20,000 bases of DNA from the IMG/VR virus record IMGVR_UViG_3300032270_000355; one strand, written 5' to 3'. Positions 11,195 to 14,993 of this stretch are shown in pieces. The position numbers and the translations under genes are program-made. Below the pieces are notes generated by a model. That model saw only the letters and a list, made by a program, of their open reading frames with translations, made no database searches and was not told the origin of the DNA. Position 1 is the stretch's first letter. The number at the start of each line of letters is the position of its first letter. This stretch comes from an uncultured virus (IMG/VR IMGVR_UViG_3300032270_000355). Taxonomy: Duplodnaviria; Heunggongvirae; Uroviricota; Caudoviricetes.

Positions 11195-11668
11195 TTATTC
11201 CTTGCTCTTAACTTTCTGTGGTTGGCGATCTGGTGATGCAACCCAAATTTCTTTGGCAGACTCACCGATTTTACCATCGACTGGACAAGGTGTACCAGCA
11301 TTCATCATTGCTGAGAATACTCTTTCATCTTGACACATAATGGAAACCGCAGCAACTTTCATACCCATATCGTAAATACCACGAGCGAGTTTTAATCGTT
11401 CGCAATTTTTATCGACCATAGTAGAACCAAAGCTGATACCTAGGATTTGAGTTTGTGCTGCGCCAGATACACCTACTGCGCAAACATCGGAGTTGATAAC
11501 TGTAATTGCTGGAGCAACAGCAGTTGGGGGTGGGGACTTAACTGTAGTTGTGCTAGTAGAGTTAGAGTCTGTGGTGCTTCTTGAAGTCGAGTCAGTAACG
11601 ATGGGATCTGCCATCGCAGTAGATGTAGCCATAACAAAAAGCACCGCTGTAGCGATCTTTTTGTACAT
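11195..11668 (-). CDS. Exported four-Cys protein (157 aa)
   Basis: Signal peptide ending AMA, S/T-rich linker, PPPTAVAP, then DVC..KNC..IMCQD..AGTPCP. Confidence 0.85.
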   Translation of the reverse strand: MYKKIATAVLFVMATSTAMADPIVTDSTSRSTTDSNSTSTTTVKSPPPTAVAPAITVINSDVCAVGVSGAAQTQILGISFGSTMVDKNCERLKLARGIYDMGMKVAAVSIMCQDERVFSAMMNAGTPCPVDGKIGESAKEIWVASPDRQPQKVKSKE

Positions 11669-11683
11669 TTGAATTACCTTTTT

Positions 11684-12229
11684 TTATAGTGTTATTGGAA
11701 TCCATAACCAAACTGCTTGTGACATAATAAAGGCTCCAAGTGCTCCGACTACAACACTGGCTTTAAACATATTTTGATTAACTGCTAGAATACTAGCTGT
11801 CAATAAAACAATTGCTATTTGTAATAAACTGCCTGCGTAAGTATAAAAAGGACTACGCTGTTTAGCTACCGCTCGTTCAGCTTCTAATCCTCTCGCCTTC
11901 GCCATCAATTCAACTTTACCCTCTCCAGTTTTTGGATCGGATTCATATCTGTCAATCTTACTTTTTAATGCTTCTGTTTTTTTCTTGTCATTAGAACGAA
12001 CGGCATCGTCATATGCCATTTCTGCTAGTGTTTGTTTAATAGACTTTGCCTGAAAAAATGCCCACGTATTGTTTGCTTCAATCGTATTATTTAATATTTT
12101 ACTGGAATTTGAACCACCAACTAATGTGTTTATGGCTAGTAATGCTGCAAGTATACAGATTACCATCCCTGCTTTGTCTTTTATCTGCGCTTCTCTTTCA
12201 GAACGAGATAGTTGTTTTACTTCTGCCAT
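11684..12229 (-). CDS. DUF4337-like membrane protein
   Basis: N-terminal TM, ANNTWAFFQAKSIKQ motif, two C-terminal TMs (LLQIAIVL). Confidence 0.7.
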   Translation of the reverse strand: MAEVKQLSRSEREAQIKDKAGMVICILAALLAINTLVGGSNSSKILNNTIEANNTWAFFQAKSIKQTLAEMAYDDAVRSNDKKKTEALKSKIDRYESDPKTGEGKVELMAKARGLEAERAVAKQRSPFYTYAGSLLQIAIVLLTASILAVNQNMFKASVVVGALGAFIMSQAVWLWIPITL

Positions 12230-12259: not shown

Positions 12260-13426
12260 TTATTTAGGAATGGTCGGATTACCGACTGAAGGTTGCAAAT
12301 CTTCCACTTCTTTTTCTATAGTTTTTGCTCGTTCTTCTTCAGTCGTAGGAGTAATCCTTCTTCCTGCAGAATCATACTCAATAGTCTTAACTGAAACTCC
12401 TGGAGCAGTATCTCTGTTCGGTTTCAGAAATTCCCTTACGCTTGTCATAAAGTGATTCGCTTTAGGAGTCACGTAGGTATTCGGGAGAGTATTAAATAAC
12501 TCTGGCTCCCAATCTTTCGTATGAGTCTGTTCTGTTACAGCAAGATCTTCTTCTGTTATAGTATCGGTTTGAATAGGTGTAACTTTATCTTCAGACTCGA
12601 TATTATCTTCTATATTTAAAATATGATCTTTTGGTGGTTCTTCAGCAGGTAAAGTTCCAGCATCAATTATTTCTTTTTTATTACTGCGTGAAAGATTCCA
12701 ATTTGCTGCTATCAATAATAGTACAGCCAGTGGATCAAACACTACTACGATAAGCATTGTAACGAAACGAACAGCTTTTTCTAATATGTCTGTTTCTGGA
12801 TTATCACCATACAATACTGCAGCAATATATTTTATTGGACCGACTTCGGCTTCGACTTTACGGACTTCGCTGGCGATCGGGGCACGTTCTTCGTTGTACT
12901 TGGCGATCTTGGTTTGCGCTGCACCGATTTCGGTAAGGATTCTGGCTCTGTCTTTTTGCTGTCCTCTACGGATGGAGATGGAACGATCGGCTCCACTGGC
13001 TTCGGTTGTTCTGCTGAGGGTTTGATCCACTTGAGCATCGAGTTGAGTAAGTTCTTTACGGCTTGCATTGATATTCTCCTTTTCGGTTTTTATCTTTTCA
13101 TCTATGAGAGCTAACTTTGATTGAACATCACCTGTTGGTATTGCTTGATCTAAGTGGGCTTTTGATAAGAAACCAAAGATACCCATAGAAGTTAACAACA
13201 TCAAAATTACTAATGATACTGTGAAATATGACTTCATAAGTTTTGGAATTTCTTTCCAGTTCCTATAAAGCCATGATGCAACTACAAGTTTTGCTGCTTC
13301 TAACAGAGAACCCATAATGGCAATCGGTATCACTGCTGCAGCAAAAATTGCGCAAAGTCCAGCAATGGCGTACCATGCTGCAACAGCTGAAAGGGATAAT
13401 GCTACTGCGAATAGTAGATATGTCAT
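12260..13426 (-). CDS. Multi-TM coiled-coil membrane protein (388 aa)
   Basis: Three N-terminal TMs, TSMGIFGFLSKAH, coiled coil, EVGPIKYIA, TM with VFDPLAVLLLIAA, low-complexity acidic tail. Confidence 0.85.
   Translation of the reverse strand: MTYLLFAVALSLSAVAAWYAIAGLCAIFAAAVIPIAIMGSLLEAAKLVVASWLYRNWKEIPKLMKSYFTVSLVILMLLTSMGIFGFLSKAHLDQAIPTGDVQSKLALIDEKIKTEKENINASRKELTQLDAQVDQTLSRTTEASGADRSISIRRGQQKDRARILTEIGAAQTKIAKYNEERAPIASEVRKVEAEVGPIKYIAAVLYGDNPETDILEKAVRFVTMLIVVVFDPLAVLLLIAANWNLSRSNKKEIIDAGTLPAEEPPKDHILNIEDNIESEDKVTPIQTDTITEEDLAVTEQTHTKDWEPELFNTLPNTYVTPKANHFMTSVREFLKPNRDTAPGVSVKTIEYDSAGRRITPTTEEERAKTIEKEVEDLQPSVGNPTIPK
12261..12267 (-). promoter_or_regulatory. Candidate late promoter CTAAATA
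   Basis: Overlaps the stop of the 388-aa gene, about 30 nt upstream of ATG 12229. Confidence 0.35.
12832..13068 (-). CDS. Putative nested (+1 frame) gene encoding a 78-aa Pro/Ser/Lys-rich protein
   Basis: AAGGAG-N7-ATG, and the ORF coincides with a local GC spike of about 55%. Confidence 0.6.
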   Translation of the reverse strand: MQAVKNLLNSMLKWIKPSAEQPKPVEPIVPSPSVEDSKKTEPESLPKSVQRKPRSPSTTKNVPRSPAKSVKSKPKSVQ

Positions 13427-13845
13427 AGTTTATTTTTTATATGAGATCCATGCACTCGAACAGATATCTGTCCATTATAGTATGCATCGGACTCTAGTAC
13501 TTTCCTTGCAAATTGCTCTCGTGCCTCGATATAAGAGCACTCAGCTTTTGATTGACAAAAGAATAAAATCTCTCGAGTAAAAGATTCTTTACCCAGAGAC
13601 TGTATATCTTTATTTAGTTCTTCGCTGGAACCATAATAATCTAACCAATCAGAATCTATCTTAGATTTGATTTTCTTTCGTTTCTTAGTCCCATTTTTTA
13701 ATGTGACCATTTTGTAGGATGTTTTAGAAAACTTTGATAGTTTCTTCCCTACATACATACGACTGTTGGCTTTGTTCGTAATTAAATAAACAAAGCCAAC
13801 ACATTCGGGTAATTCTTCAACAATGATATTTTGATATGTCCACAT
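13423..13845 (-). CDS. GIY-YIG family nuclease (140 aa)
   Basis: GFVYLITN...MYVGKK, YYGSS, a conserved Glu helix (YIEAREQF) and YYN. Confidence 0.8.
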   Translation of the reverse strand: MWTYQNIIVEELPECVGFVYLITNKANSRMYVGKKLSKFSKTSYKMVTLKNGTKKRKKIKSKIDSDWLDYYGSSEELNKDIQSLGKESFTREILFFCQSKAECSYIEAREQFARKVLESDAYYNGQISVRVHGSHIKNKL

Positions 13846-13851
13846 AAGACA

Positions 13852-13859
13852 TATTTATT
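13852..13859 (-). promoter_or_regulatory. Candidate T4-type late promoter AATAAATA
   Basis: 7/8 match to TATAAATA, 6 nt upstream of the GIY-YIG ATG. Confidence 0.5.
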
Positions 13860-14004
13860 CATCCTCGTCTAACCCTTCTTCTTCATAAATGTCAGAACCA
13901 CATAGTGGGCAATGAACGATATCTTCAAAATTAAAGTCATCACCCTTTACTGTTATCTTTCCTTCTGCATCACAATGATTGCAATTAAATTGTTTTACTA
14001 TCAT
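13855..14004 (-). CDS. Zn-ribbon peptide with acidic tail (49 aa; not in ORF track)
   Basis: MIVKQFNCNHCDAEGKITVKGDDFNFEDIVHCPLCGSDIYEEEGLDEDE; ATGA-coupled to nrdB. Confidence 0.8.
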   Translation of the reverse strand: MIVKQFNCNHCDAEGKITVKGDDFNFEDIVHCPLCGSDIYEEEGLDEDE

Positions 14005-14993
14005 GCTGCTTTCCCCCATACATCATTCCAAGAACCAGAGAGTGCACCTTTAGCATAGTCAGTCACTCGGTTTTCAAAGAAGTTACCATGAACTGGTGCA
14101 TTGATCATCTCCTCAACCCATGGTAATGGGTTGCGCTTGACTTTGTAAATGCCTTTCATGCCGAGACTAATCAATCTACGATCAGCGATATAACGAATAT
14201 ATTGTTTGACATCAGCTGCAGAAAGTTCACGCATATCACCATTGGCATAACAGAGATCGATGAATTTATCTTCAAGTTCAACCATCTTCTCAGCGATGGT
14301 ATAAATCTTTCCTTTAAGTTCGTCATTCCAGATTTCATTATTTTCTTTAATGAATTCTTTGAATAGACGAATCATATTCTCGGAGTGCATCGTTTCATCA
14401 ACGATAGACCAAGTAACGATTTGTCCCATTCCCTTCATCATACCATGACGAGGAAAGTTAAGAAGCATGATGAATGAAGAGAACAACTGCATCCCTTCAG
14501 TGAAAGCACTGAACACGGCAATGTGGGTTGCAGTTGAAGAAAGTGTTCCATTCTTGGAACTTAATTCTGTAACGTAATCATGCTTGTCACGCATCTCTTT
14601 ATATTCAAGAAATTCATTGTAAGTGGATTCAGGCATGCCAAGAGTTTCAATAAGATGTGAGTAAGCAGCAATGTGAAGTGCTTCACGTGCAGCAAACCCC
14701 ATAAGCATCATACGAATCTCAGGCTGAGGGAAGTAAGGTAGATAATTGTTAACATAGCCACCAGCCACGTCGATATCACCCTGTGTAAAGAATCGAAAGA
14801 TATTTGTGAGGAACTTCTTTTCTTCATTAGTTAGTTTTTTCTTCCAATCTTTAACGTCTTCAGCCATTGGAACTTCTGTATGAAGCCAATGACTTTGTTC
14901 ATGTTTTAACCATGCGTCATAAGCCCATGGATAATTAAATGGTTTGAAGTATGTTCGTTGATCTGTTAGATTTGATTTTGTTTTTGCTATCAT
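14001..14993 (-). CDS. nrdB: Ribonucleotide reductase class Ia beta subunit
   Basis: FFTQGDIDV, REALHIAAY (radical Tyr), TEGMQLFSSF, VDETMH and NFFENRVTDY. Confidence 0.97.
   Translation of the reverse strand: MIAKTKSNLTDQRTYFKPFNYPWAYDAWLKHEQSHWLHTEVPMAEDVKDWKKKLTNEEKKFLTNIFRFFTQGDIDVAGGYVNNYLPYFPQPEIRMMLMGFAAREALHIAAYSHLIETLGMPESTYNEFLEYKEMRDKHDYVTELSSKNGTLSSTATHIAVFSAFTEGMQLFSSFIMLLNFPRHGMMKGMGQIVTWSIVDETMHSENMIRLFKEFIKENNEIWNDELKGKIYTIAEKMVELEDKFIDLCYANGDMRELSAADVKQYIRYIADRRLISLGMKGIYKVKRNPLPWVEEMINAPVHGNFFENRVTDYAKGALSGSWNDVWGKAA

Follow-up and report, generated by a model that had tools for sequence, protein, structure and literature searches.

A conserved +1-frame open reading frame, probably an overprinted gene, within a membrane-protein gene of uncultured T4-like phages

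The embedded frame and its start signals

The IMG/VR record IMGVR_UViG_3300032270_000355 comes from an uncultured virus of the Caudoviricetes, and the 20,000 nucleotides of it analyzed here (the whole stretch, 20 kb, hereafter the window) cover a stretch of a T4-like phage genome given to nucleotide metabolism, which includes nrdA, nrdB, thyX, NifU, nuclease, and 2OG oxygenase genes. On its minus strand, a gene for a 388-amino-acid (aa) membrane protein, which we call the carrier gene, encloses a second open reading frame (ORF) at 12832-13068. We propose that this embedded ORF probably codes for a protein and was overprinted, in the +1 frame, onto the stretch of the carrier gene that specifies a helical hairpin. 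Comparison with relatives reveals a conserved frame, conserved start signals, constraint at the codon level, and joint decay of frame and signals in lineages that lose the frame. The features are listed below, with the Shine-Dalgarno sequence abbreviated as SD and synonymous constraint given as a ratio of observed to expected diversity.

12260..13426, minus strand: carrier gene, 388 aa; three N-terminal hydrophobic helices, a hairpin at residues 98-194, a fourth hydrophobic helix at 212-256 (model), and an acidic, disordered C-terminal tail
12832..13068, minus strand: embedded +1-frame ORF, 78 codons plus a TAA stop; open, with SD and ATG, in 66/66 unique relatives of at least 75% carrier identity
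13081-13076, minus strand: SD sequence AAGGAG, in the carrier codons for K116-E117, with a 7-nt spacer to the internal ATG
13068-13066, minus strand: internal ATG start, made by carrier N120-A121 (AAT GCA)
13024..13065, minus strand: helix-coding stretch, product residues 2-15; strongest synonymous constraint on the carrier (0.61 in codons 117-126, 0.47 in codons 127-136)
12841..13020, minus strand: patch rich in C at third positions, 55% GC by composition count
12835..12930, minus strand: basic Ser/Pro/Lys/Arg tail, product residues 47-78, net charge +10; second constraint zone (0.48-0.76, carrier codons 157-196)

The first base of the ORF is the second base of carrier codon 120, which places it in the +1 frame, and its TAA stop spans the codons for I198 and K199 (ATA AAA). 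An earlier note made from the letters of this DNA (the sequence-only reading) had described a 78-codon +1-frame ORF wholly inside 12260-13426, preceded by a strong SD sequence with a 7-nt spacer to an ATG at 13068, and both descriptions hold. AAGGAG occurs once in the 20 kb, counting both strands, versus 8.9 +/- 3.1 expected copies (all 200 shuffles contained at least one). The motif is strongly under-represented window-wide, and its sole copy is the one that precedes the embedded ORF; many other genes of the window have weaker SD-like strings, such as AAGGAA or TGGAG, ahead of their starts.

A second +1-frame ATG lies 11 codons upstream (13099-13101, minus strand, at carrier D109-E110) and would begin an 89-aa form, starting MRKLKPKRR, that is present in many relatives; in the window, this form is shut after three codons by a TAA (13090-13092, minus strand). 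Because stops close the upstream form in the window and in other lineages as well, we place the start of the conserved core at the SD-preceded ATG. In 13 members of the clade, a TAA stands immediately 5' of that ATG (I119 = ATA).

Positions 12841-13020 contain 99 G+C of 180 (55%), exactly as counted in the sequence-only reading, and form the richest 180-nt stretch of the 20 kb; across the window, segments of this length have a median GC of 0.38 and a 99.9th percentile of 0.54, and the flanks within the same gene have 36-38%. The excess is cytosine at third positions of the carrier codons (C at fourfold sites, 0.46 in codons 138-197 versus 0.09-0.10 outside), with G remaining at 0.06 of these sites. 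Each such C occupies a second codon position of the +1 frame, where it specifies Ser, Pro, Thr, or Ala.

Conservation and constraint among relatives

A protein-seeded scan of IMG/VR yielded 80 loci of at least 577 relatives. From these, 3 truncated genes and 24 apparent duplicates (judged by ORF length and score) were dropped, leaving 53 that, together with the window, make 54 unique coding sequences (CDS) with overall carrier identity down to 57%. Three more scans (one with a conserved carrier motif, two with divergent clade members), taken together with the first, gave 267 unique 360-nt regions, for which the 75% identity threshold was measured over the 80 carrier residues upstream of the motif. 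All 54 CDS keep the ATG, AAGGAG or AAGGAA ahead of it, and an open frame of 71-92 codons, and in all of them the patch has a GC content of 0.48-0.57 versus 0.36-0.42 for the whole gene. The 66 relatives above the threshold among the 267 regions all have a +1 frame open for at least 70 codons in addition to SD and ATG, and in a FastTree phylogeny of 132 rows the frame is open in 62/62 rows of the window's clade.

Carrier-silent positions within the start signals were compared across 64 unique regions of the clade. Of these, 63 use AAG for K116 (the nearby K111 is AAA in 36 and AAG in 28), and N120 is AAT in 62, the remainder being one GAT that still gives an ATG and one GAC that does not (the neighboring N118 varies, with AAT in 41 and AAC in 23). 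A121 is GCA in 62. Just downstream, L126 is CTT in 57/57 regions with Leu and never CTC, and R123 is CGT in 63/64 with CGC absent; CTC and CGC would be silent in the carrier and would preserve the +1 frame while changing its residue.

Open runs of at least 75 codons occur in the +1 frame of 63/64 clade regions, in the +2 frame of 0/64, and in the three antisense frames of 53, 28, and 0 of 64, so that no alternative frame is as consistently open as +1. The antisense counts bear on a different reading of the locus, in which the real overlapping gene lies on the opposite strand, either as the ORF at 12786-13025 (plus strand, 79 aa) or in the in-register frame (longest listed ORF, 12914-13114, plus strand, 66 aa, TTG start). 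Both ORFs are long in the window, the in-register frame reaches 75 codons in the 53 regions just mentioned, and C at carrier third positions becomes G at in-register antisense first positions. However, these frames are interrupted in 11/64 and 36/64 clade members versus 1/64 for +1, and the synonymous constraint described below covers carrier codons 117-134, beyond the end of the 79-aa ORF, but not codons 197-214, which lie inside it. The in-register frame moreover has only a TTG start, and its openness is a consequence of the missing TTA and CTA codons, which an open +1 frame already entails. An antisense gene is, in our judgment, highly improbable. The in-register frame is open for more than 100 codons in most clade members, apparently a side effect of lacking TTA, CTA, and TCA codons.

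The sequence-only reading had named a recombined patch as the alternative source of the GC spike. In a fuller form of this explanation, which we add here, the patch is a recently recombined or gene-converted stretch, for example one co-converted by the GIY-YIG neighbor, and its low diversity would reflect a recent sweep. A SegE-like GIY-YIG gene does adjoin the carrier gene, and the composition of the patch is unlike its surroundings. Against this, the patch occurs throughout a deep clade in which the synonymous sites of the flanks are saturated, the +1 peptides have diverged at numerous positions, with 54-94% identity to the product of the window, and the GIY-YIG gene is fixed in 80/80 related loci at 77-99% identity, unlike a sporadic mobile element. 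We consider recent recombination the remotest of the explanations discussed here.

The openness of the +1 frame exceeds what the carrier's general codon usage would give. When the carrier amino acids were held fixed and synonymous codons were redrawn from the same gene outside the region (3000 trials, 12 sequences), the frame was open in 0.0003-0.012 of the resamplings for each sequence. Synonymous codons that would make a +1 stop account for 0/485 uses in carrier codons 121-190 versus 1071/2585 elsewhere in the gene, and the 21 stop-making uses within codons 121-197 all fall at codons 191 and 195, where the shorter natural forms of 71 and 75 aa terminate. At the sites at risk, safe T- and G-ending codons (CTT, GTT, GTG, and ATT) are used freely and only A-ending codons are absent; stop avoidance is therefore not only a GC effect.

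Synonymous diversity was measured as the pairwise synonymous codon difference normalized per amino acid, observed over expected. The ratio is 0.64 over carrier codons 117-197 versus 1.12, 1.04, and 1.24 in the three segments outside it (Mann-Whitney p = 6e-9 for all 54 sequences, and 1.4e-10 for a thinned set of 17 whose flank identity is <88%). The edges are sharp, with the ratio passing from 0.92 (codons 107-116) to 0.61 (117-126) at the start of the ORF and from 0.76 (187-196) to 1.04 (197-206) at its end. Two blocks make up the profile, one corresponding to the helix and early linker of the predicted product and the other to its basic tail. The core expectation of the sequence-only reading, namely that homologues of an overprinted gene would keep the internal SD-ATG, lack +1 stops, and show suppressed synonymous variation, is thus borne out over exactly the ORF. 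Its view of the GC spike as expected for dual coding was half right: constraint is strongest toward the N-terminal end of the ORF (codons 117-136), where third positions are T-rich (T 0.56) rather than C/G-rich, and C-ending codons are preferred also where no stop is at risk. Because the strongest constraint sits at T-rich third positions, it is not merely the C-rich patch in another guise.

Reduced synonymous variation alone cannot separate coding from noncoding overlap, and the conserved element might instead be an RNA structure or a regulatory RNA or DNA site within which the open frame is incidental. The presence of four GATC sites in the 180-nt patch would suit such an element. Yet the 281-nt region folds no better than its shuffles (z +0.79; 158/200 shuffles at least as stable), no Rfam family matches at E<=1, and promoter and terminator scans are at chance (7 versus 6.8 expected and 2 versus 1.1, respectively). 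A noncoding element would also leave unexplained why stops are absent from one frame and why ATG and SD are coupled to it, and we rate this explanation as very unlikely. The GATC sites (12875, 12905, 12985, and 13024, versus about 0.7 expected from composition) arise from recurring xxG-ATC-Gxx and GAT-Cxx codon pairs, and GATC is near expectation window-wide (79 sites).

The frame can be followed into a distant clade of 41 genes with 45-61% carrier identity in the region. Here, 24/41 genes have no stop-making codon in 72 codons, versus 1.2 expected from each gene's usage outside. The counts are bimodal, with 0 in 24 genes, 1 in 5, 2 in 2, and 3-5 in 10, the last being about the neutral expectation per gene. 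Over the N-terminal half of the ORF, the synonymous ratio is 0.72-0.86 in the 26 open genes versus 0.98-1.08 in the 15 closed ones, and an SD-like sequence plus ATG is found at the homologous site in 13/26 open and 0/15 closed genes. Across the 132 tree rows, 78 are open with SD and ATG, 14 open without, 1 closed with, and 39 closed without; among phylogenetically independent pairs, frame and SD plus ATG change together in 5.8 and oppositely in 0 (median p 0.03). A sister lineage of the window's clade has about 68 open codons from another ATG and no C-rich patch (GC content at third positions, GC3, about 0.3), and its frame ends earlier.

Overprinted gene or local codon preference

Several observations weigh against a coding function, and those drawn from codon usage favor the main rival, which is a serious one. 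This rival dispenses with a second gene: some local constraint, acting on the carrier's codons or mRNA, favors C- and T-ending codons over about 80 codons and thereby removes +1 stops. Translation speed, pausing after the third membrane helix emerges, or mRNA stability are possible causes, with AAGGAG serving as an internal SD-like pause site and the ATG being an accident of a conserved Asn-Ala pair. Within the ORF, Ile, Leu, and Val codons ending in A are rare also at sites with no stop risk (1/187 cells), so a local preference for C-ending codons does exist. When the resampling draws on local codon usage, the frame stays open in 0.45-1.0 of trials, and its openness is unsurprising under that usage. 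OLGenie-like dNN/dNS and dSN/dSS were run for the +1 and +2 frames, and control regions show the same bias; dNN/dNS for +1 is 0.56, between control regions at 0.42 and 0.80, which provides no frame-specific protein signal. A BLOSUM test asking whether the carrier-silent changes that are tolerated tend to be conservative in +1 returned p = 0.011 and does not discriminate, as one control region reached p = 0.017. The in-register antisense frame, open in 53/64, also suits this rival, since mere rarity of TTA, CTA, and TCA would produce it.

Other observations speak against this rival. The strongest constraint is at T-rich third positions, and silent sites that would change a +1 residue are fixed (L126 CTT 57/57, R123 CGT 63/64, A121 GCA 62/64). 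Relatives with the same carrier fold have no C-rich patch (GC3 0.08-0.27), so the carrier protein does not need it. Stop-making codon counts are bimodal (0 or 3-5) rather than graded, and SD plus ATG decay together with the frame. We therefore regard local codon preference as unlikely, while giving it more weight than any other rival.

The remaining counterevidence concerns a gap in the constraint, the failure to find the product elsewhere, and the scatter of the frame among relatives. Carrier codons 147-156, between the two constrained blocks, have no synonymous constraint (1.15), and two lineages carry a 12- to 14-codon insertion in this gap. Word-based search of 5.8 billion predicted proteins found no free-standing homologue of the product; a profile search against 1.8 billion representatives matched 7 sequences, each either this embedded frame again or a chimera that switches frame, and a language-model (Atlas) search does not recognize the product (best 0.79, recognition 1400, below the lead threshold). 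Finally, the sister lineage lacks the usual SD plus ATG start, Pelagibacter phage Mosig lacks both the embedded frame and the patch, and the frame is lost in 15/41 members of the distant clade; on these grounds the frame is dispensable. Its absence from Mosig and the outer clades, in a carrier family that extends to jumbo phages, makes the distribution of the ORF narrower than that of the carrier gene.

Two side observations belong here. The insertion at the turn of the carrier hairpin (loci L011 and L022, after residue 142; also L156 and L200) is of low complexity, Asn/Thr/Ser/Gly-rich in the carrier frame and Pro/Thr/Val-rich in +1, and lengthens both proteins (+1 product, at least 92 aa). 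Two database proteins, P0123 and P0126, switch frame midway, from carrier to +1 and from +1 to carrier, respectively; these switches presumably come from frameshifted contigs, as sequencing errors or natural variants.

On balance, we favor a real gene at 12832-13068, overprinted in +1 on the hairpin-encoding part of the carrier gene, as the probable explanation, and we infer that the ORF is translated. Judged by its distribution, the frame predates the window's clade and is dispensable, and where a lineage loses it, it goes as a unit.

Carrier, product, and comparison with known systems

The carrier has hydrophobic spans at 1-51 (two helices in the model), 66-90, and 217-246, and the region overlapped by the ORF is the helical hairpin between the latter two. 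An AlphaFold2 (AF2) model built with 51 diverse relatives (mean pLDDT 74.5) has helices at 2-27, 29-55, and 62-95, then the hairpin (98-139 and 143-194, block pLDDT 91-98), and then a helix at 212-256 followed by the disordered tail. Basic residues come after helix 2 and helix 4, from which the hairpin would be periplasmic and the acidic C-terminal tail (net charge -12) cytoplasmic. The family has at least 8000 scored relatives, and source names among the matches listed are all "hypothetical protein"; it extends to Pelagibacter phage Mosig, to jumbo phages of Xanthomonas, Stenotrophomonas, Ralstonia, and Salicola, and to Flavobacterium and Microcystis phages. In the closest record (G001), the carrier gene is 99% identical.

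No Pfam, PHROG, or NCBIfam family matches the carrier above cutoff; sub-threshold Pfam matches are Tetraspanin (E 4e-4, below cutoff) and DUF2157 (E 0.054). DUF4407 was considered and set aside, as its Pfam model is unmatched and the name is an automatic Atlas cluster label, useful as a lead only. A profile search of PDB sequences returned generic coiled coils only (E >= 0.03), and Foldseek found no match for the model in the PDB at E <= 0.001. Full-text searches of the literature brought up general work on overlapping genes and spanins, but nothing that described this embedded ORF or assigned the carrier family a function.

The carrier gene is surrounded by nrdB, a zinc-ribbon ORF, the GIY-YIG gene, and a DUF4337 gene. 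The GIY-YIG gene (13423-13845, minus strand) encodes 140 aa, is SegE-like (Pfam PF19835, E 9e-31), and has the catalytic domain only; its stop overlaps the carrier start (ATGA), and it lies directly upstream of the carrier gene in 80/80 related loci. Given that constancy and its 77-99% identity, it behaves as a fixed gene and not as a sporadic homing endonuclease. The zinc-ribbon ORF (13855-14019, minus strand; 54 aa, CxxC...CxxC) overlaps the end of nrdB by 19 nt and is found in 79/80 loci. Downstream lie the gene for the DUF4337 membrane protein (11684-12229, minus strand; E 8e-32), found in 20/80 related loci, and one for a 157-aa protein with a signal-peptide-like N terminus (11195-11668, minus strand), found in 27/80, both within flanks of up to 2 kb; because these neighbors are present in so few loci, the downstream side is variable. 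In Mosig, the carrier homologue (L081, 3262-3906), which is without the embedded ORF, is directly downstream of a "putative glucosaminidase," an adjacency that may place the carrier family in an envelope or lysis context.

For the 78-aa product, an AF2 prediction from 29 aligned products (mean pLDDT 65) shows a single helix, at residues 2-15 (first-block pLDDT 83), and is otherwise unstructured. This helix is markedly amphipathic, with a hydrophobic moment of 0.66, in the top 0.04% of permutations. Its periodicity is probably inherited in part from the heptad pattern of the overlapped coiled coil, and for this reason we do not count amphipathicity as independent evidence. Net charge is +3 over residues 1-16, -3 over 17-46, and +10 over 47-78, with a pI of 10.3, so the layout proposed in the sequence-only reading is recovered: an amphipathic helix, a Pro/Glu/Ser linker, and a Ser/Pro/Lys/Arg tail. 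Columns invariant among the 29 products are M1, V4, S44, K47, K52, S55, K60, S65, K71, S72, K73, and K75. The product has no Cys (in keeping with the absence of a lipobox noted earlier), no hydrophobic segment or signal peptide (maximum 19-residue hydropathy, 0.06), and no match to a Pfam or PHROGs family, and no Cys column is conserved among the 29.

A mechanism can be sketched, although we have low confidence in any specific function for the product. Ribosomes would initiate internally at AAGGAG-N7-ATG on the carrier's own mRNA and make a 78-aa cytoplasmic, mostly disordered polycation without a signal peptide. The N-terminal amphipathic helix may position it at the inner face of the inner membrane, where the basic tail could bind a polyanion, whether nucleic acid, an anionic lipid, or the carrier's own cytoplasmic tail, which is acidic (net -12), and the product might work jointly with the carrier. 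The sequence-only reading had proposed a membrane-associated, nucleic-acid-binding partner of the carrier protein, a suggestion drawn from composition. The carrier's tail is the obvious candidate partner and nucleic acid another; a disruptin-like lysis role would be a third option. The gene would have originated before the split of the window's clade from the distant clade, with repeated loss in the latter, and in the window's clade the middle and tail of the product may have been remodeled to Pro/Ser-rich disorder through C-ending carrier codons. Taken as a whole, the picture of an old, still evolving overprinted gene of many uncultured T4-like phages, one clade's form of which is a histone-tail-like polycation working with the carrier, by docking on its acidic tail or by disruptin-like attack on the envelope at lysis, is a tentative one, which we consider possible but short of probable.

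Were it correct, the hundreds of natural variants, spanning birth, remodeling, and loss, would make this an unusually well-sampled system of de novo gene origin in double-stranded DNA (dsDNA) phages. A real product would also be a first functional foothold on the carrier family, one of the larger uncharacterized families of phage membrane proteins (at least 8000 relatives). The case offers carrier-silent handles (the ATG, the SD, and +1 stops) for a clean genetic test, alongside hundreds of natural sequences that include frame-losing lineages. More generally, gene callers discard embedded ORFs, and counts of the proteins encoded by large environmental phages are systematically too low as a result.

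Histones H1 and H2B have basic tails of the SPKK type. The product's tail is similarly rich in Ser, Pro, Lys, and Arg and contains the strings RSPS, RSPAK, and SKPK, but it has no exact S/T-P-K/R-K/R repeat, and DNA binding is putative only.

Lambda Rz/Rz1 is an embedded two-component spanin, described in PMC6139136. There, too, a small gene is embedded whole, in the +1 frame, in the gene for a phage inner-membrane protein, in the part that codes for the periplasmic coiled coil, and has its own start and a proline-rich product; gene callers routinely miss such genes (PMC6139136). The sequence-only reading had pointed to this likeness, which is sound for the architecture but does not extend to the proteins: the 78-aa product has no Cys, lipobox, or hydrophobic signal and so cannot be an outer-membrane lipoprotein, the carrier has four hydrophobic helices versus the one N-terminal transmembrane domain of an i-spanin, and the locus lies among nucleotide-metabolism genes, not adjoining a holin or endolysin. 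An o-spanin was accordingly rejected for the product (0 Cys, hence no lipobox Cys; hydropathy maximum 0.06), as was an i-spanin for the carrier, whose spans at 1-51, 66-90, and 217-246 are not a single N-terminal transmembrane domain and whose neighbors (nrdB, the zinc-ribbon ORF, GIY-YIG, DUF4337) are not a lysis cassette. The carrier and the product are not a spanin pair.

A parallel in size and charge is the disruptin gp28 of phage phiKT, which is under 80 aa, has a net charge of +7 and an amphipathic helix, and has no membrane-targeting signal according to bioRxiv 10.1101/515445; the same source sets an arbitrary cutoff for disruptin candidates of <80 aa and net charge >=+4. A disruptin acts by disrupting the outer membrane and complements a spanin defect, as scored in the Rz/Rz1 complementation assay described there. 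At 78 aa and net +10, with an amphipathic helix and without a hydrophobic segment, our product falls within that cutoff. It differs in that gp28 is predicted to be mostly helical, whereas the product is helical only at 2-15 and otherwise disordered, and in that the embedded gene does not adjoin lysis genes. By analogy, a disruptin-like role at lysis is a candidate function.

Gene E of phiX174, which lies within gene D, is an example of an overprinted gene. Overprinted, or de novo, viral genes are reviewed as a class in PMC8227390. The embedded ORF shares these features with the class: an ORF in another frame of an older gene, with a narrower distribution than the host gene, a disordered and compositionally biased product, and suppressed synonymous change in the host frame. 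The setting differs, since here the genome is that of a dsDNA T4-like myovirus of ~160-175 kb, in which genome compression is a weak motive, and the gene is known from sequence alone. If the product is real, overprinting makes new proteins even in large dsDNA phage genomes under little compression pressure. With a frame open beyond chance, synonymous suppression that coincides with the ORF, and a distribution narrower than that of the carrier gene, the embedded ORF appears to fit the general class of overprinted viral genes.

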